From Candidatus Omnitrophota bacterium (GTDB taxonomy: Bacteria; Omnitrophota; Gorgyraeia; Zapsychrales; JANLHA01): DNA of 64,000 nt. The stretch is from assembly GCA_963662715.1 (NCBI GenBank), contig OY759724.1, forward strand, positions 2,843,339-2,907,338, written 5' to 3'. The notes under the pieces are model-generated. The model was given only the letters and a program-made list of their open reading frames with translations, was not told the origin of the DNA and made no database searches. A program made the translations under genes and the position numbers. This document shows, in pieces, positions 47,444 to 64,000 of this stretch (positions are counted from its first letter, which is position 1; every line of letters starts with the position of its first letter).

Positions 47444-48730
47444 ATGACTAAAAAAGTTGAAATGATTTTTTTGTTCCTTTGCTTCCTGGGGGCATTTTAT
47501 TTGCGCCTCCAGGCGTCCCTGAATGTTCCCTATGCTTCCGATGAAACTCTTAAGATCCGCGTCGCGAAAGAAATTAACTTAAAGAATTTTGAGCTCCCTT
47601 TGGGTAATGAAGAAACGCATAATGGCCCTTTGCTGCTTTATGTGATGAAGGCGAGCATGAGTCTTTTAGGAGAAAACAGAATGGGGGTGCGTCTTCCGTC
47701 ATTGATTTACAGTTTATTGACTTTGTGGCTTTTATATGTTTTGGTTAAGGAATCCCTGGATCAAAGAACGGCGATGTTGTCTCTGATTCTGCTGAGCCTG
47801 AGTCAGCTTCATATCGGCTTTACAAGAATTGTCGATGAAAACGGCTTCCTGATATTTTTTGTTGTCCTGACGCTTTTATTTATTCAAAAAGCCTTGCATG
47901 CCGGGCAAAAAAGATATATTTTTTTCGCAGGTTTATCCTTAGGGATGGGAAGCTTGGTGAAAGGCACCATGCTGACGATCCTTCCGGGAATCCTTTTATA
48001 TCTCTGGCTGTATAAAGGACACCGCCACCCTTTCTCCGGCAGAGATATTTTGCTGTTTCTTATAACCTGTGGGCTTGTCGTGTCTCCCAGTGTTTATTGG
48101 GACATGACTCACGGTTATACGGATTTTAAATATCATCTGGATAAATCAGGATTTTTTGCCTTCAGTTTTATTTCTTTGGCCCTTTTTTTGGGGGAATTAT
48201 TTATATGGAACTTGCATTACATCGATGAGATATCGCTGTCGCAAATCGTGTCTTATGAATATCCTTTTTGCAACTGGCTTATGGGGTTGATCTGTTTGGC
48301 GGGGGCGACATACTTTCTGAATAACAGAAAGAACGGGTTTACGGATTTGCTGTTGTGGATTTTTTGGTCTAATTTTATTTTTTTCTCTCTGGTCAGGTCA
48401 AACTCGGGAGGGGGGGCGGCTTTTCATCTGGATAATTTCTGGTGGGCTATTGTGGCTGTTATCCCGGGTTTTATCCTGGGGGGAGCCTTTCTTGCGGATT
48501 TATGCCGGAGATACAAACCTGTACGATATTTCATCCTCCCGTTGATACTGATTTATTTTGGGATAAACGGCATAAGTTTTGTCCGTTTCCCGGCCCTTTG
48601 CTGGATCCCCAACGATCGGGTAAAAATTTTGGAATTAAGTAAGACAGCCCAAAAGTACCGGGAGGAAGGTTTGCGGGAGGAAGCTTTAAAGGTGGAGCAA
48701 TATATCCAGGGCCGATACTATGGTTTGTGA
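47444..48730 (+). CDS. GT-C fold membrane glycosyltransferase (ArnT / PMT_2 / GT39-83-like)
   Basis: 428 aa polytopic protein. Acidic first-loop motif (ASDETLKIR) and the TM layout of undecaprenyl-phosphate-sugar-dependent transferases. Confidence 0.55.
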   Translation: MTKKVEMIFLFLCFLGAFYLRLQASLNVPYASDETLKIRVAKEINLKNFELPLGNEETHNGPLLLYVMKASMSLLGENRMGVRLPSLIYSLLTLWLLYVLVKESLDQRTAMLSLILLSLSQLHIGFTRIVDENGFLIFFVVLTLLFIQKALHAGQKRYIFFAGLSLGMGSLVKGTMLTILPGILLYLWLYKGHRHPFSGRDILLFLITCGLVVSPSVYWDMTHGYTDFKYHLDKSGFFAFSFISLALFLGELFIWNLHYIDEISLSQIVSYEYPFCNWLMGLICLAGATYFLNNRKNGFTDLLLWIFWSNFIFFSLVRSNSGGGAAFHLDNFWWAIVAVIPGFILGGAFLADLCRRYKPVRYFILPLILIYFGINGISFVRFPALCWIPNDRVKILELSKTAQKYREEGLREEALKVEQYIQGRYYGL

Positions 48731-50273
48731 AACAAAGACAATCAACATTTGGGATAAAAAGTTTATTTCTTGGATAACCGTTCTGTCTTTCGGAGTGTAT
48801 ATGTTCGGGACATACATTTTGAGCGTTCTCAGCCGTTCTGCATTTTTTGACGTATCTCTCTTCGGATCAAGCCAGGAAAACCCTGTCACGACCGTCATAA
48901 GCTTTCTTGTTTTCGGGGCCGGGTTCCTTATGCTTTTCATCCTTCCCGGGTGGATTTTTTCTCTTCATTTCAAGAGGTTGAAAAGCGATATGACGGTGTT
49001 TCTCGCTGTCTCCCTGGCGGCAAGTGTTATCGGCTTAATTTTTTCTGTGACGGTTTATAAAATCATCGGAGGGGAGACGTTAAACAGGACGAATTTTCTT
49101 GTGATATTGATCATGCTTCTGGGCGCCGGCTTGATTTCCTTACGGGCGCGGTTCCCCCAGCATAAAAACGCTCCGGGAGTGGCCCGGGTTTCCCTGCCCC
49201 GCATATCCGCTGTTTTCGTTTTTATCCTGATCCCTTTAATATTTCTTTCAACCTTGGGCCATAAACTTATAGACGGGAAACCGGTGTCTTTTGATTACAG
49301 TCAAGAGGCTGTCCTGGCCATCCCCTTAGGACATCAGTCAGACGCTCTGGAAACATTCGGTTTGGCGCATAGCCTCAAAGACCGTATCCTGCCTTATTGG
49401 GATTTGGAGTATGCCGACACTTTTGGCTTCGCCTTCACTGATCCTCCGTTGTATCCGTTTCTTTGTCTGTTTGCCGTATTGCTTTTTGGAGAAAGTTTTG
49501 CCACATTGTCTCTGATGTCGGCGGGGTTTATTATCCTTATGTTTTTGTTTGTTTGGGGACAGGGAACCCGTCCGTCTCCTCTGCGTTTTTTTATCAGCCT
49601 CATGTTTATGCTGTCATATCTATATTTTTTCCGAAACAATACTGTCGTTTTTGTGCTGCTTGAACATTTTTTTATGCTGCTGATATTCCTGACCTATATT
49701 TTCCTGTTGCGGGAAAACTACGGAATATTTTTTGTGTTCGCAACTTTGGCAACTTTGACGAGATTTTACGGTATTTTTTTTGTGTTGCTGGGATGGGGGG
49801 CCTGGGCTTTATTCTATAAAGACCGCAGGGATAAATCGTTCTGGATTCTGTCCCGGTACGGTTTTGTCGTGGCCGGTATCCTTTCCGGCGTGGCTTTCAT
49901 CGGGGTTTTGACCGGACACCTGGACACGTATCTAAAATGCATTTTAATCGAACACTTTAACAGGCTGGATTATTTTTCCGCACTGTCGGGCATTTATCCG
50001 GGAAACGTTGTCTCCCTGCCGGCAGCCTCCTTGCGCCAGGGCGTGCAATTCCTGGCCTGGTGTTTATATAGTACTGTATTTACGTTCCCGGTTCTGATAT
50101 ATTTCAGTAAGAGCAGAGAGGAAAATTTTTATTCATTTATCTGTCTTGTTTACTGTTTTCTTGTCGTTTCCAGTAAATACAGTTTGCCTAGATATGTTAT
50201 CCCGATGCTGCCTTTGGTGGCCATGATTTTTGCCAGTAAAGTTGAGCGGTTCATGGGAGCCGCTCTTCCCTAA
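48720..50273 (+). CDS. Hypothetical polytopic membrane protein (possible GT-C fold or polymerase-like)
   Basis: 517 aa, ~12 hydrophobic segments. Overlaps the upstream gene by 11 nt. Confidence 0.4.
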   Translation: MVCETKTINIWDKKFISWITVLSFGVYMFGTYILSVLSRSAFFDVSLFGSSQENPVTTVISFLVFGAGFLMLFILPGWIFSLHFKRLKSDMTVFLAVSLAASVIGLIFSVTVYKIIGGETLNRTNFLVILIMLLGAGLISLRARFPQHKNAPGVARVSLPRISAVFVFILIPLIFLSTLGHKLIDGKPVSFDYSQEAVLAIPLGHQSDALETFGLAHSLKDRILPYWDLEYADTFGFAFTDPPLYPFLCLFAVLLFGESFATLSLMSAGFIILMFLFVWGQGTRPSPLRFFISLMFMLSYLYFFRNNTVVFVLLEHFFMLLIFLTYIFLLRENYGIFFVFATLATLTRFYGIFFVLLGWGAWALFYKDRRDKSFWILSRYGFVVAGILSGVAFIGVLTGHLDTYLKCILIEHFNRLDYFSALSGIYPGNVVSLPAASLRQGVQFLAWCLYSTVFTFPVLIYFSKSREENFYSFICLVYCFLVVSSKYSLPRYVIPMLPLVAMIFASKVERFMGAALP

Positions 50274-50289
50274 ACCCCGGTCATTTAAA

Positions 50290-51765
50290 ATGAACTTTAT
50301 TCGTAATATTATTCTTATTAGAGCGGGCTATCTGCAAAGGAAAAAATTCGAACATCCTCTGCACTGTCCGCCGCCCTTGTCCCTGAAGTATGCCAAAGCC
50401 CTTCTGGAGACAAGCGGGGAATACAATGTTAAAATTGTCGACGGGTTGATCGACTGCGTGCCGGATGAAAACATCCTGAAGATGCTGTCTCAGTGGCCGG
50501 CACAATTTGTTTTTATTGAAATTGCTTCGCCGGCCAGCGAAAAGGGCCTGGCTTTATCTCAAAAGATCAGGAGCCAGTTCCAGGATATGGTTGTCGTGGC
50601 CGGAGGGTCGGATGTCAGTGAACGGTATCAGTTTTATCTGACGGCGAAGGACACTTTTGATGTCATCCTCCGCGGCGAATTTGAAAATGAATTAACCGTG
50701 CTGGTCAAACAGCTGCAAACAGCTGATAAGAAAGAAGATGTTCAAAAAATATACCTGGAAGAGAGAAACCGGCAGGTTTTGCTGGTCGAAGACCTGGATG
50801 TCCTGCCCTGTCTTGCCTGGACCAGGGCGGAATTAAAAAAATACCCTTATCGTTATCCTTTGAAATATGCCCGGCCGCTGTTGTCAGGTTATGTCTCGAC
50901 TTCGAGAGGGTGCCGGCACGGGTGCACCTTCTGTTCGCCGTCAGTCCGCAAAAGTTATGGAAAAAAACTGAGGCTGCGGTCTGCTTCGCATGTCGTCGCA
51001 GAGATAGAATATCTGCAGACATTGGGTGTCAATCTTGTCTCTTTTGAGGATGATGATTTTACCGGCAGCCGGGATCATTTACTTTCCATCTGTGAAGAGC
51101 TGATGAAAAAGAACACGAACATAAAATGGACCTGCCATGCCAGGATTGATGAAGTGTCCCCGGACATATTGAAAATTATGCGGCAGGCCGGCTGTATCTT
51201 AATTTTGTTTGGAGTAGAATCCGGTTCGCAGAACATTATACACACCCTGCATAAGAATTTTTCTGAAAGGGACTGGGGGGACCGGGCGCGGGAAACCTTC
51301 CTCAATGCAAGAGAGGCGGGTATCGCCACGTGCGCATTGTTCATGGTGGGGAACCCCGGTGAGACCCGCGATGATGTTAATGCCAGCATTCAACTGGCTT
51401 TTGACTTGCATCCGGATTTTATAAAAGTTCATAATTTCACGCTTTATCCCGGCTCAAAGGATTACGGCCGATACCAGTCCCAGCATGCCCCGGTTCTTTC
51501 TCAGCATCATTATCTGCAGCCGATCATTAATGTGAGCTGTTTGACAAATACCGAATTAAAAATTTTACAGCGGGAATTCTACCGCCGGTTTTTCTTCCGG
51601 GCCTCTTTTCTCATAAACCATACTTTAGGTTACGCTGTTTTTTATTTGCTGAATTGGCCGTGGAGCTTTAAGATGCTCGGAGAATTGTTGAGTTTTTTGT
51701 TCAGCAGGCATAAAAATGAGTCTCTTAAGGGGAACGACGCAGAGAATAGAAAAGGGGGGCTTTAA
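50290..51765 (+). CDS. Cobalamin-binding-domain radical SAM enzyme (class B-like)
   Basis: Radical SAM motif CRHGCTFC after an N-terminal Rossmann-like domain. Start moved to the ATG at 50290 (MNFIRNI), not the track's 50230, which overlaps the upstream gene by 44 nt. Confidence 0.75.
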   Translation: MNFIRNIILIRAGYLQRKKFEHPLHCPPPLSLKYAKALLETSGEYNVKIVDGLIDCVPDENILKMLSQWPAQFVFIEIASPASEKGLALSQKIRSQFQDMVVVAGGSDVSERYQFYLTAKDTFDVILRGEFENELTVLVKQLQTADKKEDVQKIYLEERNRQVLLVEDLDVLPCLAWTRAELKKYPYRYPLKYARPLLSGYVSTSRGCRHGCTFCSPSVRKSYGKKLRLRSASHVVAEIEYLQTLGVNLVSFEDDDFTGSRDHLLSICEELMKKNTNIKWTCHARIDEVSPDILKIMRQAGCILILFGVESGSQNIIHTLHKNFSERDWGDRARETFLNAREAGIATCALFMVGNPGETRDDVNASIQLAFDLHPDFIKVHNFTLYPGSKDYGRYQSQHAPVLSQHHYLQPIINVSCLTNTELKILQREFYRRFFFRASFLINHTLGYAVFYLLNWPWSFKMLGELLSFLFSRHKNESLKGNDAENRKGGL

Positions 51766-51766
51766 G

Positions 51767-53650
51767 ATGACCGATTTTATGGGAATGCTGTCATGGGATA
51801 AAGGGCTAAAGGCTGGCACCCGCCAGAAAATTATGAAAAATGATGATGTCCCGTCCCCTGCCGGCATTGAGACAAATCTGAACGGAGGGGGAGCGTTTAT
51901 CGGGGCGACAGGCTCTGTCGGAGCCCCCGGAACCTTCAGGGGCAAAGAGGTTCTGGGATACCATGTGATGTTCAACGGGCAGTTATACAACACCGAGGAA
52001 CTGTTCGCCGAAGGAGGAAGATCGGAAGAACGGCCCGCTTTGCCGAATCCTCCTGAACTTATAGCCGCGATGTTCCGGAAATACGGGGAACAATGTTTTT
52101 TGAGACTGAACGGAGTCTATTCCCTGGCCCTGCTTGATCCGGGGCGCAGGCTGTTTTTTCTGGGGACAGGAAAACTCAATCCCCAGACGATTTACTATCT
52201 TTATCAAGAGGAATGTCTTTATTTTGCAGATAAAATTGAAACCCTGGTAAGAATATCCGGCATGCCGCCGGAGCTTGACCATCAGTTCCTGCCCAAATAT
52301 TTTGCGCACGGCTTTGTCCCCAGCCCGCACACATTGCTGAAAGGAATACGCAAAATACCCACAGGAAGTTTTCTGCTTTTCCAGGAAGGCGGGCGGCTGT
52401 CTTTACAGCGTTACTGGGATATGCAATTCAGCGGGAAGGATGTCCCGGAACTCAGAGAAAAAGATTACAGCCGGAATATTTATAAAACATTGATCGACAC
52501 CACCCGCAGACGCCTTAATATTGATTCAAGACTGGGCGTGTTTCTAAGCGGAGGTCTTGATTCCGGATCCTTGGTTGCGGTCCTCAGTCAGTTGAAAGAG
52601 GGAAAGCCCCTGCATACCTTTACGGCGATCTTTGACGAGAAATCCTTCAGTGAAGCGAATCAGGCCAAGACTGTCGCGGCTCATTTCGGCACGAAACATT
52701 TTGAAATCCTTCTGACCCCTGAAAAGGCTCTGGAGTTTGTGAGGCGCTTAATCGGGAAAATTGACGACCCGTTTTCTGACGATGATGTCATCTGCGGGGG
52801 GGTGCTGTCCCCGGTCGCCTCTGAGCATGTCGATGACGTTTTCCTGGGAGACGGCCCCGATGAATTATTGATGGGGTACCCGTCCCTTTTAGCTCATAAA
52901 TTGTCCCGCATTTATGAAGCCGTTCCCGGGGCGCTCAGGAGAATTTTTGAGCGGGGGATGAACCGCCTGCCTGTTTCTTATGAATATTGTGCGTTTGACG
53001 CGCGGTTCAGGCAGTTTTTAGGAGGCGTGGGCTACCCGGCGGAACTCCGCGACGCGGCATGGTGGGGCCCTTTCCCGCCCCAGAATCAACCCGGCCTTTT
53101 TCACAGGGATATTCAGGAAAACCTGAACTTTGAATACCGGCAGATTTATTCTGAGGCTTTGGAGGAAATAGCCCGGGGTAATGCACATGGGATCATAGAA
53201 AAGATTTTAACATTATACATTCGGTGCCTGGGTGAACGCTGGTTCATGAAATTGAATGCCGTGAGTCAAAGCACGTCCATTCATTTTAAACTGCCTTACC
53301 TGGATGACCGTTTTGTGGAGTGCGCCAATGCCGTCCCGAGCCGGTATAAACAGAAATCGAAATATATTTTAAGAAAAGCGATGGAGACTGATTTGCCGAA
53401 GAGTATTTTATGGGGACGCAAAAGACCTTTCTTTGTCCCGTTGGCTCTGTGGATGAAGAATAATTTCAGAACATTGATTTTGGATGTCCTGACGGAAACG
53501 AATGTCCTGAAAGCGGGGTTGAACTATTCTTATGTTTCTCATATGCTTCAGCAGCATTTCTCCGGGGAAGCGAATCATGCCAAACAACTGTGGAATATCT
53601 TTATTTATGTGGCATGGGCTATCCGCCTGCCCAAGTGGGGCCGGGACTGA
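51767..53650 (+). CDS. Asparagine synthetase B-family amidotransferase / adenylating enzyme lacking the N-terminal catalytic Cys
   Basis: PP-loop SGGLDSGSLVAVL and AsnB C-domain architecture. Start taken at MTDFMGML, preceded by a GGGGGG SD. There is no Cys at position 2 and none upstream in frame. Confidence 0.75.
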   Translation: MTDFMGMLSWDKGLKAGTRQKIMKNDDVPSPAGIETNLNGGGAFIGATGSVGAPGTFRGKEVLGYHVMFNGQLYNTEELFAEGGRSEERPALPNPPELIAAMFRKYGEQCFLRLNGVYSLALLDPGRRLFFLGTGKLNPQTIYYLYQEECLYFADKIETLVRISGMPPELDHQFLPKYFAHGFVPSPHTLLKGIRKIPTGSFLLFQEGGRLSLQRYWDMQFSGKDVPELREKDYSRNIYKTLIDTTRRRLNIDSRLGVFLSGGLDSGSLVAVLSQLKEGKPLHTFTAIFDEKSFSEANQAKTVAAHFGTKHFEILLTPEKALEFVRRLIGKIDDPFSDDDVICGGVLSPVASEHVDDVFLGDGPDELLMGYPSLLAHKLSRIYEAVPGALRRIFERGMNRLPVSYEYCAFDARFRQFLGGVGYPAELRDAAWWGPFPPQNQPGLFHRDIQENLNFEYRQIYSEALEEIARGNAHGIIEKILTLYIRCLGERWFMKLNAVSQSTSIHFKLPYLDDRFVECANAVPSRYKQKSKYILRKAMETDLPKSILWGRKRPFFVPLALWMKNNFRTLILDVLTETNVLKAGLNYSYVSHMLQQHFSGEANHAKQLWNIFIYVAWAIRLPKWGRD

Positions 53651-53680
53651 AATAAAGATGTCTATGGGCAAGGGAGCCTC

Positions 53681-54979
53681 GTGAGCCGTATATTATTGTT
53701 AAAACCTTACTGGCCTTATCCTTACGGGAAGGGAGAGCATACATATAACCGTATCTGGGCGCCTTTGTCTTTATTGAACTGTGCCGCGATCCTTCAGCAG
53801 TCCGGACACCAGCCTTATATCTTGGATGCCCATGCCCTGCGCATAAAAGCGCGAAAGCTGCGGCCGTATTTACAGGGATTTGAAAAGATCGTTATTTCGT
53901 CTTCCTGTTTGGATAGATGGCAATGCCCCAACATTGATATCACGCCGTTTCTAGAGGCTGTGGAAAATCTCAAACAGGTCACCGCGGAATTTTATGTGAC
54001 AGGGTATCACGGGACAAGGTGTCCTGAGGATATGCTCAGAAAGACGGGAGCGAAAGCGGTCATCCGGGGGGAACCGGAATCCGTTATCCTGGATATTGCC
54101 AGCGGTAAAAGTCTTCAGGATATCCCCGGGATAACTTATGCCGGGCACAGCCGCATTGTTTCGAATCCTGACGCCTGTCTCCCGGATTTAAAAACATTAC
54201 CCGTGCCGGCCTACCGTTTGTTAAACCCCCGGAAGTATTTTTACGAAATCTTGGGCGGAAGATTCGCTTTGCTGGAATACAGCCGGGGATGTCAATACCA
54301 GTGCACATTCTGCAATAAGGTCATGTACGGTTCCGGATTGAGGCTCAAGTCTGCCCGCCAAATGATCGAGGAAATCCGGACCGTCGTCGAAGAATGTCAT
54401 TTCCGTTCCGGGTATTTTATCGATCTGGAATTCCTGTCCGACAGGGAAATGGTGGAGGATATCTGTGATTTTTTTATAACCGAAAATTACGATTTCAGAT
54501 GGTGCTGTCAGACCAGAGTTGACTCTTTGGACGGCGATATCCTGATGAAAATGAAGAAAGCCGGCTGCCAGCTGATTCATTTTGGGGTCGAAAGCGGCAA
54601 GCAGAAATTTTTAAATGAAACACGCAAAGGCTTTAAGCTGGACAGGGCCATGCCGTCAGTTAAACTCTGCAAAGATGCCGGGATAAAAACACTCGCTTTT
54701 TTTATCTTCGGATTTCAGGAGGAAACAGCCCGGGACAGGGCAGAGATACTCGAATACGCAAAGACTTTGGACACGGATTACGTCTCTTTTCATAAAATAT
54801 TCCCTTATGCGCAGGATAATGGAAGTGTCCCGGAATTCCGGCCGGATGAAATAGACGCGTTTATCCGTCAGGCTTTTTTGCAGTATTATTTAAGGCCGGC
54901 GTGCCTGAAAAAATTGGATTTTAATGTTCTGTTGCGCTCTGTGAGGTTGTTATGGGCCCGCATGACCTCATTGTCGTGA
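53681..54979 (+). CDS. Cobalamin-binding-domain radical SAM enzyme (class B-like)
   Basis: 432 aa. GTG start. Radical SAM motif CQYQCTFC. Confidence 0.75.
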   Translation: MSRILLLKPYWPYPYGKGEHTYNRIWAPLSLLNCAAILQQSGHQPYILDAHALRIKARKLRPYLQGFEKIVISSSCLDRWQCPNIDITPFLEAVENLKQVTAEFYVTGYHGTRCPEDMLRKTGAKAVIRGEPESVILDIASGKSLQDIPGITYAGHSRIVSNPDACLPDLKTLPVPAYRLLNPRKYFYEILGGRFALLEYSRGCQYQCTFCNKVMYGSGLRLKSARQMIEEIRTVVEECHFRSGYFIDLEFLSDREMVEDICDFFITENYDFRWCCQTRVDSLDGDILMKMKKAGCQLIHFGVESGKQKFLNETRKGFKLDRAMPSVKLCKDAGIKTLAFFIFGFQEETARDRAEILEYAKTLDTDYVSFHKIFPYAQDNGSVPEFRPDEIDAFIRQAFLQYYLRPACLKKLDFNVLLRSVRLLWARMTSLS

Positions 54980-55009
54980 CCTCTTTTAAAATACGGAATC
55001 AAGACAATA

Positions 55010-56626
55010 TTGATGAACGATGCGACACTAAAAAAATTTATTGCGGCGGCCGTTTTGCTGTGCATGACATTTTTGATCTTTTTTCATCTGGGACATTATG
55101 CTTTCTGGGATGACGAAGCTATCTGCGCTTTATTCGCCAAATCACTTTTTGAGCATGGGGATACGAGCGCTGTTTCAGGTCATAATCTGATTGCCTTCAA
55201 TGACGGCCGGGAACTGGAAAATCTTCATCAAAGATATGTCCCCCCGCTGCAGTTTTATTTTGCCGCTCCCTTTGTCGGGCAGGGAGGAGGCTCGACCTTC
55301 ATCGCCCGGTTCCCTTTTGCTGTTTGCGGTTTGCTGACGGTTGCCGTTATTTTCCTCTGGCTTTGGAGAAGCCGTGCTCCAGTTTATACCTGGCTTTTGA
55401 TGTCAGCCGGGATATTGGGAAACGTTTCCTTTATCCTCTCCTGTCGGCAATGCCGTTACTATGCCCTGAGCATGCTCCTGACTGTTCTTCTGGCATTTTT
55501 ATATTATTTTAGAACCCCCAAAAAACAGACCGTTTTGGCCATGGCAGGCGTGTCCTTGTTGCTTTTAGCTTCCAATTATTTGTGTTACGCGGCTGTTATG
55601 GGATGTTTGATCATGCATGACATCATCTGGGGCAGGAAGAGGCATGCCTCCAGCCGCTCGGATATTCTCCTTTTCTGGGGTATGCAGCTTTTCCTCGGGG
55701 GCCTCATTGTTTTGACGTATAATCCTTTGGGAAAAAATGTCTGGGATATCTCCTCGGATTCCTGGCTCAGGAACAGAACAGCTTTATTCTTCTGGAATTT
55801 TCGTGATTTGAACAGCTGTGAAATGGGCGTGGGGATTCTTATCGCTTTGTGCCCTTTTTTGTATTTTTACAAAAAAGACCGCCGTTTCCTGCAGTGTCCC
55901 GCTCTTATTGTGACATATATTTTGATCGTATCGTTATTCACCCCGCACCCTTTTGATATGCTGTGGGTCGCTTTTGTCCGTTATTTGTGTCCCTTAATCC
56001 CGCTCTGTATCTATACGGCTGTGCTGGTTATCCAGACTTTATCCGGGCACAGGCGCTGGCTGCTCATTCTTCTGGCTTTTCTGGCCTTCGGGACCAATGT
56101 TTTGCACGGAGGCCCGTTGACCAGGGTCAAACGGCACACAGCTTTCAGCCATGCCGTCGCTCACGGACATTTCCGTTCGACGTTTGTTGAATATTTCAAT
56201 GAATTGTTGACCGCAAGGCCCAATCCGTATCAATTAGTTTCTGACTGGATTAATGGCAACCTGCAGACCGGGGATACGGTCTGGGTCGTGCCGGGATACG
56301 CCAATTATCCTCTTATGTTTCACGCCCCCAAGGTTGTATATGCCTGGCAGCTCACGGAAAAACAAGGGCAGTTTTCGAACCTGCCGGATATTCATTTTAA
56401 AGGTGAGGAATGGCCTGATTACATTATCGCTTTCGGCCCGAACCTTCTGGATGTTTTTGCATTCTTTGAAAATAAAGAGGAGGCCTTTCCCTATGAAATG
56501 ATCGATCAGATAAACATTTTTTGGTCATCCTTGACCCGTCCGGAACTTTTTTGGCATTCATTCCGTGAGATTGAGAATTATTCCCTTGCGACGGAAGCCA
56601 TTTATATTTTTAAGTTTTCAGAATAA
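55010..56626 (+). CDS. GT-C fold membrane glycosyltransferase (ArnT / PMT_2-like)
   Basis: 538 aa polytopic protein. First periplasmic-loop motif FWDDEA, typical of the ArnT/PMT_2 catalytic loop. Confidence 0.55.
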   Translation: MMNDATLKKFIAAAVLLCMTFLIFFHLGHYAFWDDEAICALFAKSLFEHGDTSAVSGHNLIAFNDGRELENLHQRYVPPLQFYFAAPFVGQGGGSTFIARFPFAVCGLLTVAVIFLWLWRSRAPVYTWLLMSAGILGNVSFILSCRQCRYYALSMLLTVLLAFLYYFRTPKKQTVLAMAGVSLLLLASNYLCYAAVMGCLIMHDIIWGRKRHASSRSDILLFWGMQLFLGGLIVLTYNPLGKNVWDISSDSWLRNRTALFFWNFRDLNSCEMGVGILIALCPFLYFYKKDRRFLQCPALIVTYILIVSLFTPHPFDMLWVAFVRYLCPLIPLCIYTAVLVIQTLSGHRRWLLILLAFLAFGTNVLHGGPLTRVKRHTAFSHAVAHGHFRSTFVEYFNELLTARPNPYQLVSDWINGNLQTGDTVWVVPGYANYPLMFHAPKVVYAWQLTEKQGQFSNLPDIHFKGEEWPDYIIAFGPNLLDVFAFFENKEEAFPYEMIDQINIFWSSLTRPELFWHSFREIENYSLATEAIYIFKFSE

Positions 56627-56766
56627 CAATATGTTGATGTTGTTTTTGTCCGATATCTGATATAAAACAAAAAATGCATGGTATCCTTGAATATATGAGG
56701 TAAAATTTAAGATTAGACTTGATAAAGATATCCTGGCGATATCCGTTGTATGATTTATGTGAACAT

Positions 56767-57471
56767 ATGGACAGACAAGCCACCTCCATTTCGATTGTTC
56801 TTCCTGTTTTTAATGAGGCCGGTAATATTGAAACGACCATGCAGGAAACTGTGAACTTTTTTAAGCAGGAAAAATTTTTCCCCGAATATGAGATTATTAT
56901 TGTTGATGACGGCAGCACGGATAATTCTCCCCGAGTCTTGGACGGGCTCTCGGGAAAAATCGAACGGTTGTCTGTTGTCCGGCATGCCCAAAATCGGGGC
57001 TACGGAGCCGCTTTAGTGACTGGAATAAAGAAAGCCCGGCATCCCTGGATTCTGCTCATGGATGCAGACGGCCAGTTTAAAATCAATTCCATCCTGGACA
57101 TGATCCCCCGCATGAACAGCTGTGATGTCCTTGCCGGTTACCGGCGGAAGAGAACCGATTCCCGGATAAGGATTTTGCTGGGGAAGACTTATACTTATCT
57201 TGCGTTTTTGCTTTTTAAAGTAAAATTAAAGGATATTAACTGCGGATTTAAACTTCTGAGAAAAGATATCATTGATATTGATGCCGTGAGTTCTCATGGC
57301 GGGGCTTTTTATACGGATTTTTTTATCAAGACCCAGAAAAAAGGCTGCCGGATTGAGCAGGTCCCGGTCGAACATTTCCCCCGTTTAAAAGGGAAACAGA
57401 CCGGAGCGAGCTTCAAAGTTGTTTTGGCGGCGATGATTGATGTTTTTCGATTATTTTTTATTGATAGATAA
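56767..57471 (+). CDS. GT2 glycosyltransferase, polyprenol-phosphate sugar transferase type (ArnC/DPM1-like)
   Basis: ISIVLPVFNEAGNIETTMQETVNFF...YEIIIVDDGSTDNS. Start set at the first ATG (56767). The track begins at an upstream TTG (56719). The exact start is uncertain. Confidence 0.75.
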   Translation: MDRQATSISIVLPVFNEAGNIETTMQETVNFFKQEKFFPEYEIIIVDDGSTDNSPRVLDGLSGKIERLSVVRHAQNRGYGAALVTGIKKARHPWILLMDADGQFKINSILDMIPRMNSCDVLAGYRRKRTDSRIRILLGKTYTYLAFLLFKVKLKDINCGFKLLRKDIIDIDAVSSHGGAFYTDFFIKTQKKGCRIEQVPVEHFPRLKGKQTGASFKVVLAAMIDVFRLFFIDR

Positions 57472-57562
57472 TTTCTGCAAGATTGCTTACAATGTCTTTT
57501 GGGAAAACAGGGGCAGATGGCCTGTCCGTTAGAAAACGACCATCAATTTTAAAGAGTTTGTT

Positions 57563-58789
57563 ATGACGATAGGATTCATGCGGCGTATCGATTATTGGTT
57601 CGGGATCCCGGCGTGTTTTTTTCTTTCCATATTTCATGCCGTATTTAAAAAGCTGGCCCGTCCCAAACAGCCTCCGGCACCCATCAGAAAAATTCTCTTT
57701 TTAGAGCTGTCCGAGATCGGAAGCACCATCCTGTCTTATCCTGCCATCACCAAGGCCAAAGAGCTGTTCCCGGAGAGCGAGCTTTTTTTCTGGATTTTTG
57801 AATCCAACCAGGATGCTGTGCATGTCCTGAAAGTTATTGACCGAAAAAATGTTTTAACTGTTAGGACAAAAAATTTGTTCATCTCCGCAAAAGACCTGAT
57901 AAACAATTTACGGAGGATCCGCAGAGAAAAAATCGATGTTGTCCTTGACTTGGAATTGTTTTCCAGGTTCAGTTGTGTTTTATCCTTCCTGTCCGGAGCC
58001 CCCCGCCGGGTCGGGTTTCACTCATTCGCCCAGGAGGGGCTTTATCGCGGGAATCTTCATACGCACAGAGTCTCTTATAACCCTTACCAGCACATTTCCG
58101 TGAATTTTCTTTCTCTTGTCAGCGGGATCAATGCGCCGCTAGATCAAGTGCCCCTTGTCAAAGAATATTATGAAAAGAAGGGCTGCGATATCCTCCTGCC
58201 GAAGTTAAAATCAACGGGAGACGGGAAGAAAGCCATTTGGAAAAAGTTGAAACAGATTGCTCCGGATATTGACGAAAAGAAAACAATTGTTGTTATCCAT
58301 CCCGGGATCAAGGAAGCTTTGCCTTTGCGCCAATGGGCCTTAGGCCACTATTTGGAACTGACCCGGAGGTTGCTCCTGAATCCCAATGTCTTTATCGTTA
58401 TGGCCGGGGTGCTTTATGAATCGCTGGATAAAGATATTGTCGAGCAGTTGCGTATGCCCCGTTTGATAAATCTAATAGGGAAGACCTCGATCCCGGAGTT
58501 GATTGATTTGTTCAACGTATCTGATATGCTGATCAGCCATGACGGCGGTATTATTCATATCGCGTCTTTAACCCCCGTTCATATCATTGCCCTTTTCGGC
58601 CCGGAGACGCCTTCCTTGTACCAGCCGTTGACAGACAATAAGACAATTTTATATCGGCCTTTGTCCTGCAGCCCTTGTTTAACGGCCTACAATCACCGGA
58701 TTTCCATGTGCCGTGACAATCAGTGCGTTCGGGAGATTACTGTCGAAGAGGTTCTGGAAAAGGCTTTGTGTTCTTTGCCGGATGCCTGA
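57563..58789 (+). CDS. GT9 family glycosyltransferase (ADP-heptose:LPS heptosyltransferase-like)
   Basis: 408 aa. Typical GT9 two-Rossmann layout (...DVVLDLELFSRFS...VIHPGIKEALPLRQW...LISHDGGIIHIAS...). Confidence 0.7.
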   Translation: MTIGFMRRIDYWFGIPACFFLSIFHAVFKKLARPKQPPAPIRKILFLELSEIGSTILSYPAITKAKELFPESELFFWIFESNQDAVHVLKVIDRKNVLTVRTKNLFISAKDLINNLRRIRREKIDVVLDLELFSRFSCVLSFLSGAPRRVGFHSFAQEGLYRGNLHTHRVSYNPYQHISVNFLSLVSGINAPLDQVPLVKEYYEKKGCDILLPKLKSTGDGKKAIWKKLKQIAPDIDEKKTIVVIHPGIKEALPLRQWALGHYLELTRRLLLNPNVFIVMAGVLYESLDKDIVEQLRMPRLINLIGKTSIPELIDLFNVSDMLISHDGGIIHIASLTPVHIIALFGPETPSLYQPLTDNKTILYRPLSCSPCLTAYNHRISMCRDNQCVREITVEEVLEKALCSLPDA

Positions 58790-59244
58790 AAACGAACGGG
58801 GGAAGAAGCCTTTGCCGGGTAAAATTTGAATTCTTGGTGAAGAAATTTGGTGAAGGATTGTTGTTATTTCATTATTATCAGATGGTTATGAGAAAAGCAC
58901 CGTATTGAACCGTAATGGTTGCATCATTTGCCTGTTAACAATTATACTTGTTATATATAGAAAAACGGATCCCCTGTTTTTCTGACACAGGATTTGAGGG
59001 CCGTGACGTGCTATTTCTTAATAGGAGAGAGGAAAAGGTTGTTTGCAATAAGCAAAAAACTCTTTGATTTTTCCTTTTACCCATGATTAAATAGAATATA
59101 GAATACAAAAAGTATAAATCTTAAGATTTTCCGTTTATCGTAGGGCAAATACCCAGTCTATCTTAAGTCACAGTAAGAATAATGACTTAATAGTTTATAT
59201 AATAATTTGCAAAGTAAGATTTATATAATAAGGGAGGAAATACA

Positions 59245-59517
59245 ATGTGGCACAATAAACTATTTCGCTGGGCGATAATCCTCACGAGCCTGAACGTATT
59301 TATTGCGATGGGATTGTTCCTTGCCGGGCCGAAAGCCCCGGTACAAACGGTCACAGATGCCGACGCCCAATGTGTGCGTTTCTATTTAGCCAGTTGTTCA
59401 GGAAACGGCTGTACACCCAGCTGCGGTGCTGGATCGGCGGTTAATACTGTTATTACCGGTTACGTCAATGTTTACGGCGGACAGGCCCAGTACAGGACAT
59501 CATTATGTTCACAATAA
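59245..59517 (+). CDS. Small secreted/membrane-anchored Cys-rich peptide (90 aa)
   Basis: Strong SD (AGGGAGG) 6 nt upstream. N-terminal hydrophobic segment AIILTSLNVFIAMGLFLAG. C-terminal Gly/Ser/Cys-rich region with 5 Cys (QCVRFYLASCSGNGCTPSCGAGS...SLCSQ). Confidence 0.4.
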   Translation: MWHNKLFRWAIILTSLNVFIAMGLFLAGPKAPVQTVTDADAQCVRFYLASCSGNGCTPSCGAGSAVNTVITGYVNVYGGQAQYRTSLCSQ

Positions 59518-59719
59518 GCTGCTGATTTTTTATGCAGCTTCAACGTCTTGCAGGAACAGTAAATTTATTGATGTTGATTTTCTAAATCCACATCAATCTC
59601 TTCGGAAGAAGGTAATATTTCTTATATCTGCCCAATAGTTTTTTGCTAGAATACATGGGTTATTGATATTATTCAACCCGATAATCCCGTTTATCGCCAG
59701 CCATTCCAGTCCTTCATAG

Positions 59720-61420
59720 ATGCCAAGGGAAAAGAAACCACTTTTAAATTTTCGCCGCTTTGACTGGCAAAAAAATCCTTATATAAAATTTGGGGTCATA
59801 ATATTGCTCATTGCCTGCGCCGCAGCTTTACGCATGTATCGTGTGAGCTATTACGATATGTCTTTTGAGGAAATCGGGACCGAGGTGTATACGTTCCAGA
59901 ACTTAAACAGGATTTCCCAGGCAACAGGAATGTCCCAGTTTTCTCTGTTTTTCAAGAAAATGAAAAACGATCCCCATTCCAGTTTTTCTTATCTGTTGGT
60001 GTATTTCTTCAGCAAGGTGTTCGGTGACGGGAAGATATTAAGATATTTGTCCGTCATTTTCAGCCTCTGGGCATGCGTGATTTTTTACCGGCTGTCCCGT
60101 ATGTTATTTCCCCCCCGGGTAAGCCTGTATTCAACAATGATCCTGGCCATTCATCCGTTCCATATTTGGTATGCGCAGGAGGCGAGGATGTATGCGGCTA
60201 TGACGTGGATCTCTTTGTTGGCGTTCTATGCTTATTTCAAGGCGCTGAACACAAATAAACTTGTCCCCTGGATGAATTTTGCTCTGGCAAGTTTGCTGGC
60301 TTTCAATTTCAGTTATTTTTATGGATTATGGCTTTTGGCTTCAAGTGCGCCTTTTTTCTTTAAAAAATACCGGCCTTTTTTAAAAAAATGGCTTTTTTCT
60401 GTTGTGTTCGTTTTTTCTGTGCAAATATTCCTCTATCCTGTTTTTTTAAGCCAGTACGGGTTCGTGAAACACAGTTTCTGGATCCCTATTCCTACCCCAG
60501 AAACGTTGTTTTGGACTTTCCGGGTTTTTAATTTAGGCTACACGTCCTCTTATCCACAGTATCATTTAGCATTGTTCCTTTTTTCGTGTTTATTCGTGTT
60601 TGGGGCCTGCCGTTTGTATAAAAAAGACCACATTTTAACTGTAACGATATTAAGCTTTATTTTTTTCCCGATTCTTTCGGCCTTTGTTATTTCAAAACTT
60701 GTGGCCCCGGTTTATATTAACCGGCAATTGCTTATTTTTTCCCCTTTATATTATTTGTTCATTGCCTACGGTATCGACCGCCTGGCCCGGAAAGAACTCC
60801 GCGTATTCGTGTTTTTATTCGTTATTCTGCTTATTTCCACATCTCTTTACAATTATTATGGCGGCTACATGTTTTATCATCCTTTCCGGGCTAATCTCCT
60901 GGGCGGCGTCTTCCCCAAAAAGAGATATCTGCATTTATTCGACTCTTTAATGAAAGAATTCCGCCCGCACGATATCCTGGTGGCCGGAGACCTGCAGTCT
61001 TATATCCTCCTGCGGTCGTATCTTTTGAAAAACGACAAGACATGTCCTGTTTCCGTTGACCAGTTAAGGTTCCTTTTTTATCCGGAAGATCTTTTCCGCT
61101 TTTCGCAGCGTTATTTAAAGATCAACAACCTTATTGAACAAATGCCTGAGAAAGAACTGTCGGAATTGCATGAATTCCAGTTATTTGAAAATGATACCCG
61201 CCGGTTAAGAAAAAGCGACCTGGAAAAGGAATCTTTCCGGCGCATATGGCTTGTTCTGGCCAGCTGGGAGCCCGAAAGGCAATTGAGCGCAGAAGCGGGT
61301 GTTTTGCATGTTAAGTTGGCAGAGCAGTATCGTTATGTCTCTTGGCAGCAGAACGACGGGATATTTGTGGAGCTTTTTTTGCAGGATCGCAGGGGGGGCG
61401 CCGGGGAACCTATCCCTTGA
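59720..61420 (+). CDS. GT-C fold membrane glycosyltransferase (ArnT / PMT_2-like)
   Basis: 566 aa polytopic protein with ArnT-like topology. The C-terminal ~150 aa are soluble. Confidence 0.5.
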   Translation: MPREKKPLLNFRRFDWQKNPYIKFGVIILLIACAAALRMYRVSYYDMSFEEIGTEVYTFQNLNRISQATGMSQFSLFFKKMKNDPHSSFSYLLVYFFSKVFGDGKILRYLSVIFSLWACVIFYRLSRMLFPPRVSLYSTMILAIHPFHIWYAQEARMYAAMTWISLLAFYAYFKALNTNKLVPWMNFALASLLAFNFSYFYGLWLLASSAPFFFKKYRPFLKKWLFSVVFVFSVQIFLYPVFLSQYGFVKHSFWIPIPTPETLFWTFRVFNLGYTSSYPQYHLALFLFSCLFVFGACRLYKKDHILTVTILSFIFFPILSAFVISKLVAPVYINRQLLIFSPLYYLFIAYGIDRLARKELRVFVFLFVILLISTSLYNYYGGYMFYHPFRANLLGGVFPKKRYLHLFDSLMKEFRPHDILVAGDLQSYILLRSYLLKNDKTCPVSVDQLRFLFYPEDLFRFSQRYLKINNLIEQMPEKELSELHEFQLFENDTRRLRKSDLEKESFRRIWLVLASWEPERQLSAEAGVLHVKLAEQYRYVSWQQNDGIFVELFLQDRRGGAGEPIP

Positions 61421-61609
61421 CATGAATTTTCTTGAAATATATAATGCGAACAGTCCATAGGATAATTTTTTCCTTTAATAATCTATAATTTGTGATATTT
61501 TGGTTTGAGCATCCCGGATACTCATTGTATGATCGCTGACGCTGCGGTGTACGGGTTAAGGGAAGGGCGTTAAAATTCTGTTTTTCCGTAACTGTAAAAG
61601 GGGAGCATA

Positions 61610-63589
61610 ATGAAACTGATCAAATTTCGTATCTATAATTACAAATCAATCATCGACAGCGGATATTGTGACCTGTCCACGGATTTTACGATTCTTTTGG
61701 GAAAGAACGAGTCGGGAAAAACCGCGGTCCTGGAAGCCTTAAGGGATTTTGACAAACAGGTGGCGAATTTCCCGGAAGACGCTTTTCCTATCAGCGGTGA
61801 TTATGAATCCCCGAAACTTGAAATGTGCTTTCAGGTTGATGAGGCGGAACTGGATGCGATTCAAGATTCAACGGGAATTAAATTGAAGGGAGCGCTCGCG
61901 GATTATCTCATTGAGAAAGGTTTGTCCCTGGAGAAAAACTGTACCGGCGAGTATTCTATTAAAGACGAGACCCTGCTTCGGTTATTAGATGAGGTGAACC
62001 AGGGCCAGCGTCACTATATCCGTAAAGAGGAAAAGAAGATAAGGGCGCTGTTGACGGGATATTCGATCCCGGAGCTTGACCTGGAAGCCTCTGTCCCGGA
62101 AATCCAGGAACGTGTCCAGCAGCTATTCGTGACCATCAAATCCATTTTACCGCTGATCAAAGAGGAGGATATTCAGCAATCTGTTATAGAGGCTTTGCGT
62201 TTTATTAAGCAGGAATCCAAGGATTTATCGGAGCAGGAGAGTCAAGTCGATGCTAAGATGGCTTTTTTGGATAAAATTAAGGGCTTTTTGCCGCATTTTA
62301 TTTTCTTTAACGAATTCAATGATATCCTGCCCTTTGAAATCCCCCTGCAGGAACTCAGCCGAAACCAGGCCGTGCTTGATTTTGCCAAGATTGCCCGTTT
62401 GGATATTGATAAAATTATCAACACGCAGGACACCCAGAAACGCATTAATATTCTGAACCATCATTCTGCCGCTATCAGCGGGGAATTCCTGAATTTCTGG
62501 GGGCAGAACCAGATGGAGCTGATCATTCGTCCTGAAGGCGATAAACTGCTTTTCGGGGTCAAAGAGGCCAACAGGACGGAGCTGTTCAAAATCCAGCAAC
62601 GAAGCAAAGGTTTTCAGTGGTTCCTGTCTTTCTATCTGAGGCTCAACAGCCAAAAAGGCGCCTCTAATGTCATTCTTATTGATGAGCCCGGGATGAACCT
62701 GCATGCCAAGGCCCAGAACGAAATTATAAAGGTCCTGGAGCATTTGACTCTGCACGGGAATCAAATTGTATTCAGCACCCATTCACCTTATCTTTTGGAT
62801 GATCTTCGGCTGGACAGGATACGTCTTGTTCTTAAAGACCCGGCCAGCGGGACAGTTTTGGAGAGTAATTTAAGTATGGCTACCGACGATGAAACATTAA
62901 CGCCTCTTATTTCCTTGTTTAAGCTGGGCCTTTCGCATCGTCTTTCCATGCTGGAAACCGGAAAAATAAATGTTATTGTTGACGGGCTTGCCAATTATTA
63001 CTTCTTGGACGGGATGCAATGCTTTGATGAAAATGTCCCTTGGGCCGATTATCACTTCATCCCCGCTTCCGATATCTCTGAAATCCGGCAGATGGCGTCC
63101 TTGATGGTGGGCTCAAAAATGAATTTCCTGATTCTTCTGGATTTCAATCAGGATAGCGAAAAGCTTGCGAATATCCTGCAGGAAACATTGGGATTGGACG
63201 CGACACAGATTATCTTTATCAATGCCGCTCTTGATCAGAGAGTGGAGGACCTTTTTTCAAAAGAGGATTTCTGCAGAATTCTCATAGGCGAAGATCCGGA
63301 CGAAGAAAGTACGCTGTCAAATTCGACTTATCTTAAGACGCACAATAAAAACCGTGTTTGGCTGGCGAAAAAATTTACGGATTTATCTCATAAAAAGGAC
63401 AGGCTGCTTTTATCTCAGGAAACGTTATCTTCTTTCAGGCAGTTTATAAACCGTGTGTTCAGAAGCGGAGAAGATAATGCCCCACCTCAGGACAGGAAAG
63501 AAAAATCCTTGTTCTCAGAAATCAGGCGCTTTCCATTTTTCCCGAAATTCGGAAAACGGCCTGAACTTACACAAGACAGCAAAAAATAA
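61610..63589 (+). CDS. OLD-family (overcoming lysogenization defect) ATPase with C-terminal TOPRIM-like region; AAA_15/AAA_21 ABC-type ATPase
   Basis: 659 aa. Walker A LLGKNESGKTAVLEAL. ABC signature/Walker B ...VILIDEPGMNLHAKAQ...VFSTHSPYLLD. The C-terminal region has VIVDG/LLDFNQD acidic motifs consistent with a TOPRIM nuclease. Confidence 0.6.
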   Translation: MKLIKFRIYNYKSIIDSGYCDLSTDFTILLGKNESGKTAVLEALRDFDKQVANFPEDAFPISGDYESPKLEMCFQVDEAELDAIQDSTGIKLKGALADYLIEKGLSLEKNCTGEYSIKDETLLRLLDEVNQGQRHYIRKEEKKIRALLTGYSIPELDLEASVPEIQERVQQLFVTIKSILPLIKEEDIQQSVIEALRFIKQESKDLSEQESQVDAKMAFLDKIKGFLPHFIFFNEFNDILPFEIPLQELSRNQAVLDFAKIARLDIDKIINTQDTQKRINILNHHSAAISGEFLNFWGQNQMELIIRPEGDKLLFGVKEANRTELFKIQQRSKGFQWFLSFYLRLNSQKGASNVILIDEPGMNLHAKAQNEIIKVLEHLTLHGNQIVFSTHSPYLLDDLRLDRIRLVLKDPASGTVLESNLSMATDDETLTPLISLFKLGLSHRLSMLETGKINVIVDGLANYYFLDGMQCFDENVPWADYHFIPASDISEIRQMASLMVGSKMNFLILLDFNQDSEKLANILQETLGLDATQIIFINAALDQRVEDLFSKEDFCRILIGEDPDEESTLSNSTYLKTHNKNRVWLAKKFTDLSHKKDRLLLSQETLSSFRQFINRVFRSGEDNAPPQDRKEKSLFSEIRRFPFFPKFGKRPELTQDSKK

Positions 63590-63805
63590 TTATTTCTTTC
63601 TGTCTTCCTTTTGAATTTTTTTGTCTTTATTTATAATAAAATAAACTAATATTAATAATTATGTTTACTTTTTTAAACATTTATTATAAAAATTAGACAT
63701 TCATATTGCAAAAAAATACATATTTTTCTATTTATAAGTATAAGTTTGTAATAAATATTATAATGGCACATTTATTGCTATATATTTTGTTAAGGAGGAG
63801 TCAAC

Positions 63806-64000
63806 ATGAAAAAATATAGAGCCATTCTCATTATTTCTGTCGTTTTTTTTAGCCTTTTAGGGTCTGCTGCTGCGGAAGCCGGAACTTATTACGAATTTAT
63901 TCCTAGTCCTGATGCAGATTTAAATGACTTAGACCATTACAGATATAGTTTGTGGGGCATAACCTGGACCGTGCCCAGTAATGAAGAGATTGTCGGCGCC
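63806..64000 (+). CDS. Secreted hypothetical protein, 3' end truncated by window edge
   Basis: AGGAGG SD, then ATG. Signal peptide MKKYRAILIISVVFFSLLGSAAAEA. Open to the end of the window. Confidence 0.4.
   Translation, partial: MKKYRAILIISVVFFSLLGSAAAEAGTYYEFIPSPDADLNDLDHYRYSLWGITWTVPSNEEIVGA

Follow-up and report, generated by a model that had tools for sequence, protein, structure and literature searches.

OLD-family proteins are usually read as defence effectors combining an ATPase with a nuclease, and annotation pipelines recognise them from the ATPase alone. In Ts OLD, a class 1 protein, the catalytic set consists of E377, D431 and D433 for metal A and of D381, S478 and E480 for metal B (Schiltz et al., PMC7049728). 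According to that study all class 1 homologues conserve these metal ligands, and DNA nicking persists in single-site triple mutants (PMC7049728). What the OLD ATPase does on its own is a question raised by two other proteins: the phenotype of E. coli YbjD is independent of its Toprim domain (PMC13261556), and Cran1, an OLD-family ATPase of Sulfolobales involved in cell-cycle progression, is vertically inherited and has no apparent defence role (PMC12796447). Here we describe an OLD-like gene at 61610..63589 (+) of a stretch of 64,000 nucleotides (nt) from Candidatus Omnitrophota (assembly GCA_963662715.1, contig OY759724.1, positions 2,843,339 to 2,907,338), called hereafter the window. An initial annotation had read this gene as an OLD-family ATPase/nuclease of class 1 length and as a candidate single-gene defence islet. 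The finding worth following is a pattern at the level of a clade, of which the window gene is one member: strong constraint preserves the ATPase module, the nuclease site is decaying, and its place is taken by a new short C-terminal peptide.

The gene starts with ATG, 4 nt downstream of a GGGGAG ribosome-binding site, and encodes 659 amino acids (aa) plus a stop. More than 100 homologues align residue for residue with the N-terminus of the protein. The ABC-type ATPase region (aa 1-440, 61610..62929) is supported by Pfam (AAA_15 at 4e-22, AAA_21 at 1e-16) and by an AlphaFold model. It contains a Walker A motif, GKNESGKT (aa 31-38, nt 61700-61723), a helical insertion visible in the model (aa 120-226), a Walker B/D-loop motif, VILIDEPGMNLH (aa 353-365, nt 62666-62704), and an H-loop, STHSP (aa 389-393, nt 62774-62788). 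The open reading frame (ORF) and the ATPase core were therefore correctly recognised in the initial annotation, apart from the signature, which had been placed in the Walker B stretch; the equivalent of the ABC signature is RSKGFQ (aa 331-336, nt 62600-62617). Residues K37, D358, E359 and H391 are kept throughout a 118-sequence family alignment, except for one gap at K37, and the ATPase site of the window protein is, as far as its residues tell, intact.

Comparison with known proteins gave a consistent family assignment. The best PADLOC models were AbiLi, Old, AriA, PtuA and GajA, and the best match in a PDB sequence search was Ts OLD (6P74), spanning aa 353-440 only. A scan against NCBIfam returned matches far below threshold only, for instance the retron Eco8 effector with 44 bits for a cut-off of 250. 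The AlphaFold model, computed from the 118-sequence alignment, had a mean predicted local distance difference test (pLDDT) score of 83.9 and a predicted TM-score (pTM) of 0.77; within the ATPase region pLDDT was mostly 80-95, with short dips to 60-65. Searched with Foldseek, the full-length model had Ts OLD (6p74), GajA and retron Eco8 OLD as top matches, over some 690-730 alignment columns. A separate model of aa 440-659 (pLDDT 87.9) matched best 6nk8 and 6njx, the C-terminal regions of class 2 OLD proteins from B. pseudomallei and X. campestris, with TM-scores of 0.50-0.54 and a probability of 1.00. Taken together, the Pfam, PADLOC and PDB matches, the full-length fold matches and the match of the C-terminal domain establish an OLD-like architecture throughout: the window protein is a member of the OLD family, with an ABC ATPase, a helical insertion, a Toprim fold and a helical sub-domain. 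It is also a standalone protein, as had been annotated, no partner gene being found.

Within the Toprim-fold domain and the helical sub-domain (aa 450-621, 62957..63472), the active site is degenerate. The acidic TOPRIM-like motifs pointed out in the initial annotation do exist, and they lie in a Toprim fold, but compared with the catalytic motifs they are degenerate. The family alignment has LLEGISD, LDND and SIEDLF as ligand motifs; the window protein has VIVDGLAN, LLDFNQD and RVEDLF. At the ligand positions, 74 of the 118 aligned proteins read E-D-D-D-(S/A/C)-E, and this reading is shared by 74 of 74 canonical sisters. The window protein reads D458-N462-D511-N513-R544-E546, so that relative to the canonical set E is replaced by D, two D by N, and S by R. 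On alignment the catalytic residues are thus largely absent, and three acidic ligands remain. The five closest relatives read D-N-E-D-(G/R/Q)-E, and the other 38 non-canonical proteins carry strings such as GDNNTE, QMENLE and NDSRAE. In all, 30 distinct degenerate strings were counted among the 44 tail-bearing relatives in the alignment.

Profile searches gave the same picture. The Pfam scan recovered the two ATPase families, but no Toprim model matched the window protein at E≤1. The OLD-like TOPRIM family, PF20469, matched five of five canonical proteins, four of them above the Pfam cut-off, whereas none of five tail-clade proteins was matched, nor was the window protein. Its Toprim region is collinear with that of sisters in which the same positions match PF20469. 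The assignment to the class 1 OLD nucleases is contradicted by the DNDNRE ligand set and by the unmatched Toprim models. From the residues present we infer that DNA cleavage by the window protein would be weak or absent.

A neighbour-joining tree of the ATPase region alone grouped the 47 tail-bearing or degenerate tips in one clade, the tail clade, and 75 canonical tips in another. At equal ATPase divergence, the ratio of Toprim to ATPase identity was 0.64-0.90 in the tail clade, versus 0.99-1.29 in the canonical clade. Between the window protein and its orthologues, the ATPase was 68% identical and the Toprim region 47%. Judging from these identities, the Toprim region of the tail clade evolves faster than the ATPase and under relaxed constraint. 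Its loss is complete in eleven further members (L010, L011, L013, P0103, P0121, P0122, P0125, P0134, P0135, P0139 and P0149), in all of which the ATPase is retained together with an acidic linker and the peptide at the end. These Toprim-less proteins are 500-560 aa long, with an acidic linker of roughly 50-100 aa; three of the genes lie at 720-2333 of L010, 946-2562 of L011 and 7995-9623 of L013. Few members of the clade are as little decayed in their ligand residues as the window protein. The simplest history would be one gain of the tail, after which constraint on the nuclease site was relaxed, with repeated decay and, in places, deletion of the domain.

The named members of the tail clade are Omnitrophota, as taken from the source names of the sequences, and some metagenome-assembled genomes (MAGs) carry the label 'uncultured Planctomycetales'. 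More distant relatives, with 25-30% identity, were found on 84 plasmids, and a search of a phage collection returned one weak partial match only. In the literature searched, there is no description of an OLD clade whose Toprim has decayed and which bears a C-terminal peptide, and no paper joins Omnitrophota, defense systems and OLD.

All 47 clade members have the C-terminal tail, even those from which the whole Toprim region is missing. Every protein with a non-canonical site has an extension of 40-107 residues past the last helix, whereas canonical proteins end 0-16 residues past it, with two exceptions (30 and 37). The tail consists of a linker, variable in length and sequence, followed by a terminal basic and hydrophobic peptide. 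In most of the clade the linker is acidic (mean charge -5) and often rich in proline; with the peptide, the last 14 residues have a mean charge of +4. It follows the pattern [KR][KR][KR]S[LF]F.[FL][FL][KR][KR], with KRRSLFAFLKK, RRRSFLNYLKER and RKPFFKFLGR as typical forms, and has basic residues on both sides of bulky hydrophobic ones spaced i, i+1, i+3/4 (SLFAFLKK, SLFSEIRRF). A search with the motif pattern, which misses the internal variant of the window sub-clade, found 2 of 157 canonical proteins and 36 of 65 others. The tail of the window protein (aa 622-659, 63473..63586) is disordered in the model, with pLDDT below 55 and a short predicted helix at aa 634-638. It includes the clade-specific peptide R629-K649, RKEKSLFSEIRRFPFFPKFGK (nt 63494-63556), and its version of the basic and hydrophobic peptide reads KSLFSEIRRFPFFPKF. 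The form shared by the window sub-clade is KKSLFSEI[KR]RFPFFPF, followed by about 13 polar residues.

Known peptide signals were also considered for the tail. A twin-arginine signal would lie at the wrong end of the protein, and for a beta-clamp-binding motif there is no Gln and the positions vary; the two candidates are kept as leads only. The tail peptides of P0024, P0025 and P0030 (KRRSLFAFLRKK) have an AFLRK core identical to part of the E. coli FtsZ C-terminal peptide, DIPAFLRKQ. Mimicry of this FtsZ peptide (AFLRKK versus DIPAFLRKQ) is likewise left as a lead. The layout is FtsZ-like too, a disordered linker joining the globular domain to a short peptide at the terminus.

Genomic contexts also separated the two clades. 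An adjacent defence gene was found in none of eight independent tail-clade contexts, as opposed to all four canonical contexts, both samples being small. Besides the window type, the tail-clade contexts comprised nitrite reductase and transporters, GT4 and S4, a giant beta-helix protein, genes of unassigned function, two-component systems, pirin and GSDH, and RibD_C and peroxiredoxin. The canonical contexts were HindVP - Dcm - Vsr - OLD; a type I restriction-modification system with SLFN/AlbA, PDDEXK and insertion sequence (IS) elements; T5orf172 - methyltransferase - MutH - OLD; and a KAP NTPase with an MqsA-like giant protein. Three of these four are inside or beside restriction-modification operons. 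No GajB/UvrD, retron, AriB, PtuB or AbiLii partner was found in the window or the relatives examined, in agreement with the initial annotation, which had noted the lack of an adjacent UvrD/GajB-like gene and excluded Gabija. Clustering of the neighbour ORFs from 12 tail-clade loci revealed nothing shared outside the syntenic group of the window itself, and a hidden two-gene system was ruled out on this ground.

Some of these loci showed further features. In two of them an ORF of unassigned function directly follows the tail-clade gene: one of 159 aa with a 4-nt overlap (L089, 2232-2711) and one of 402 aa after an 8-nt gap (L094, 9181-10389). The two are mutually unrelated, and neither was found at other loci. 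Among the canonical sisters, OLD genes are embedded in restriction-modification operons in L091 (4570-8857), L093 (4882-8863) and L092 (1-8845), and the HindVP-Dcm-Vsr-OLD and T5orf172-methyltransferase-MutH-OLD operons have gaps of 3 nt or overlaps of 4 nt between genes. A functional coupling of restriction-modification and OLD in these operons is possible; we know of no earlier description of it.

At the window locus itself, the gene has its own promoter and a conserved neighbourhood. A sigma-70-type promoter, TTGACA-17-TATAAT (61417..61445, +), matches the consensus at 12 of 12 positions, its -35 hexamer overlapping the TGA stop of the upstream gene. It is the sole perfect match in the window, for 0.03 expected. 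Hexamers and spacing are invariant in the relatives L001, L002, L003 and L006, where other intergenic DNA is mostly divergent. The promoter is followed by a leader of about 160 nt (61446..61609, +), which contains the ribosome-binding site (61600-61605), is not conserved and has no match in Rfam. The last six genes upstream encode a radical SAM protein, a 538-aa membrane protein, GT2, GT9, a 90-aa ORF and, next to the OLD-like gene, a PMT_2-like membrane glycosyltransferase. Their order is kept in the same four relatives, and the OLD-like gene comes next in each. Its product is the best conserved of the syntenic block, with 59-62% identity versus 38-59% for the others; gene order breaks downstream of it. 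Therefore, given its conserved promoter and the conserved six-gene synteny, the OLD-like gene is an independently transcribed, vertically inherited unit, and it holds a fixed place beside a glycan-biosynthesis cluster. Invariance of the consensus promoter across the five loci suggests that this lineage uses canonical -35/-10 promoters.

Composition did not single the gene out. Its coding sequence has a GC content of 44.3%, versus 46.7 +/- 2.1% in 2-kb windows (15th percentile), and its GC content at third codon positions, 52%, lies within the 48-56% of four neighbouring genes, so that the AT-richness noted for it does not set it apart from its surroundings. AT-rich spacers had been described on both sides. 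This is true of the downstream one (63590..63805, 216 bp), which at 17.1% GC is the lowest in the window, where 200-bp windows of 30% GC or less make up 0.8% of the total; it is likely to serve as promoter region for the gene that follows. In the upstream spacer (61424-61609) the GC content is 36.6%, only a mild depression relative to the window mean of 46.6% (standard deviation 5.4%, 200-bp windows). No intrinsic terminator was detected 3' of the gene on the + strand, and an Rfam scan of spacers and leader revealed nothing credible. No defence gene was found within about 11 kb upstream, nor in the 64 codons of the downstream ORF that lie inside the window; no helicase or nuclease gene is adjacent, and PADLOC returned no defence match for the neighbours beyond a generic radical-SAM similarity. 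A mobile defence islet is not supported, because the gene has the composition of its neighbours, synteny and promoter are conserved in the four relatives, and the tail-clade contexts are without defence neighbours. The context evidence thus leans away from a mobile defence gene.

The reading that we favour, with confidence only slightly above even, is that the window protein is a nuclease-attenuated OLD-derived ATPase whose output would go via the tail, perhaps by tethering to the membrane or to a partner. Such a protein would retain the ATP-driven dimeric switch or sensor of other OLD, Rad50 and SMC-like ATPases, and its functional output would pass through the tail and not through a nuclease. 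The mechanism judged most likely is a valency-dependent tethering to the membrane, by analogy with the C-terminal amphipathic helix of MinD, which binds membranes only at higher valency (PMC6803595). Alternatively, the tail might dock onto a partner protein. An OLD protein with a Toprim-independent or non-defence role is plausible because of the observations on YbjD (PMC13261556) and Cran1 (PMC12796447).

Several observations weigh against this reading. Concerning the nuclease site, the catalytic residues were mapped by motif order and by alignment to the canonical sisters, without coordinate superposition. Within the clade, degeneration has gone least far in the window protein and its five closest relatives: D458, D511 and E546 are still acidic in the former, and P0002-P0006 hold D/E/D at the metal A positions. 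The window protein may have residual or weak nickase activity, since three acidic ligands survive and single-site triple mutants of Ts OLD still nick. Moreover, a patch formed by E546-D547-L548, D553-F554 and N571 is at least 95% conserved in the tail clade where the domain is retained, and the Toprim-fold domain therefore still does something. Concerning the tail, the peptide of the window sub-clade is internal and rich in proline, and the linker preceding it is about neutral (charge 0 to +2), so that the tail of this sub-clade may work differently from that of the rest of the clade. A scan of hydrophobic moment did not set the tails apart from canonical control C-termini; being non-discriminating, it was not counted as support. 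The membrane tether is put forward by analogy only, the confidence of the model being low in the tail. Finally, the contrast in contexts is drawn from eight tail-clade and four canonical samples, and at the tail-clade locus with two-component systems a transposase lies at a distance of 1.3 kb, and a PIN/MazE pair at about 6.5 kb.

Some of these points would fit a different view, in which the gene encodes, on its own, a working class 1 OLD nuclease that tolerates its substitutions and stops phage by ATP-regulated Toprim cleavage of DNA or tRNA. Asn is able to coordinate Mg2+, and the acidic ligands D458, D511 and E546, the all-acidic metal A triad of P0002-P0006 and the persistence of the E546/D547/D553/N571 patch speak for it. 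Its architecture is class 1-like and its context standalone, with Ts OLD (6p74) as the best PDB sequence match, and the wider family occurs on 84 plasmids while the sister clade resides within defence islands. Against an active nuclease, however, stand two D-to-N changes and one S-to-R change at positions invariant in 74 of 74 canonical sisters (S/A/C at the third), the failure of any Toprim model to match, and a Toprim region that is relaxed and, in some clade members, wholly lost. Conserved synteny, neighbour-like composition and the lack of defence neighbours point the same way, and we consider this explanation unlikely.

Loss of the nuclease would still be compatible with defence if the effector had been swapped: the ATPase would sense infection, and the tail would damage or depolarise the membrane or recruit a host toxin, a form of nuclease-free abortive infection. 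Three points would agree with this: the ATPase that would act as sensor has an intact site and is close to those of the defence proteins AbiLi, AriA, PtuA and GajA; the tail was acquired where the nuclease site was lost; and a strong conserved promoter would suit a constitutively expressed sentinel. The peptide, however, with its 10-20 or so residues and four or five hydrophobic side chains, has the size of an anchor rather than of a pore-forming element, none of the eight contexts has defence neighbours, and the gene is inherited vertically in synteny as the best conserved of its block; a swapped effector is quite improbable in our view. It could also be argued that the ATPase half alone matters, the Toprim remnant and the tail being drifting leftovers and the tail motif a by-product of composition. 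The faster evolution of the Toprim region, the low model confidence in the tail and the YbjD phenotype, which needs the ATPase only (PMC13261556), would agree with this. Drift does not account, however, for a terminal peptide found in all 47 members, even Toprim-less ones, nor for a Toprim surface patch conserved at 95% or more, and we regard it as very improbable.

Returning to the nuclease-attenuated, tail-dependent ATPase, its origin may be sketched, though we hold the sketch as tentative and rather doubtful: a single exaptation, in or near Omnitrophota, would have turned an OLD defence ATPase-nuclease into a vertically inherited ABC ATPase, free of nuclease, tethered to the membrane or to a partner, and serving the cell outside defence. 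The flexible linker with its tethering peptide would have been gained first; the Toprim nuclease, then dispensable, would have decayed in most members and been deleted in some. Whatever its origin, the clade offers a natural series from intact through partly degenerate (the window protein) and fully degenerate to deleted nuclease sites, usable to probe the OLD ATPase alone. It also gives reason for caution before genes of this kind from uncultured phyla are tallied as defence systems.

The remaining features of the window are as follows. Downstream of the OLD-like gene lies the 5' end of another gene (63806..64000, +), preceded by the ribosome-binding site AAGGAGG and encoding a signal-peptide protein beginning MKKYRAILIISVVFFSLLGSAAAEAG. 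Its first 64 residues had no relatives among 5.8 billion proteins and no PADLOC match. At the orthologous loci the window ORF is absent, and different, unrelated small genes occupy its place. The presence of a signal peptide and of other genes at the orthologous position argues that it is not a partner of the OLD-like gene. Upstream, same-strand ORFs, typically of 400-540 aa, extend over about 50 kb (11425-61420, +). The last 14 kb, which were scanned (47444-61420), encode B12-binding radical SAM enzymes, asparagine synthase, PMT_2-like proteins and GT2/GT9 transferases, and the whole forms a cluster of very large size for the modification of glycans or lipids. Inside this cluster rich in B12-radical SAM genes, the 90-aa ORF (59245-59517, +) has an N-terminal hydrophobic segment and a C-terminal half rich in Cys and Gly, and is syntenic in the four relatives at 38-42% identity; it might be a modified peptide or a small membrane protein. 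We took the antisense ORFs that lie within the OLD-like gene, for example 62225..62782 (-), to be fortuitous.

Among described systems, class 1 OLD proteins (phage P2 Old, Ts OLD 6P74, Vibrio cholerae OLD and E. coli YbjD/OldB) are similar in being encoded by a standalone gene and in their domain plan, an N-terminal ABC ATPase that carries a helical insertion and, after it, a Toprim fold at the C-terminus, and Ts OLD is the best PDB match to the window protein by full-length fold and by sequence. The window protein differs from them in its ligand set, conserved there and DNDNRE here, in a 38-aa tail with a conserved peptide, and in lying outside mobile or defence contexts. The canonical sisters, of about 615 aa (for example P0054, P0085 and P0110), are 38-44% identical to it along their full length and align collinearly, their domains following one another in the same order; their named members belong to Paceibacterota, Patescibacteria and Thermodesulfobacteriota. 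Unlike the window protein, they keep EDDD[S/A/C]E, match PF20469 and occupy defence-type loci. Gabija GajA and other class 2 OLD proteins (B. pseudomallei, X. campestris, B. cereus GajA) share the ATPase, the Toprim and the C-terminal helical region, and it is because of the helical sub-domain after the Toprim that the C-terminal half of the window protein matches class 2 better than Ts OLD. However, the GajB/UvrD helicase gene is absent beside the window gene and the relatives examined, and the window protein does not retain the catalytic residues.

By its ATPase half, the window protein scores best against AbiLi, AriA and PtuA, and it resembles AbiL (AbiLi/AbiLii), PARIS (AriA/AriB) and Septu and retron PtuA/PtuB in concept, as an ABC ATPase that would do no cutting of its own. 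These systems need an adjacent nuclease gene, whereas none was found in the window or in eight related contexts, and the window protein still carries a fused Toprim remnant. With MinD and FlhG it would share, by analogy only, a short basic and hydrophobic C-terminal peptide on a dimerising ATPase, the ATPase folds being unrelated; charge pattern and hydrophobic spacing of the tail would suit a membrane-targeting helix of this type. Finally, Cran1 resembles the window gene in being vertically inherited in one lineage and apparently not involved in defence, but it is an active nickase, archaeal and with no described tail, and the likeness comes without demonstrated close kinship. If the exaptation sketched above were true, the tail clade would be a bacterial counterpart to the archaeal Cran1, and the domestication of a defence gene would have been caught in the act.

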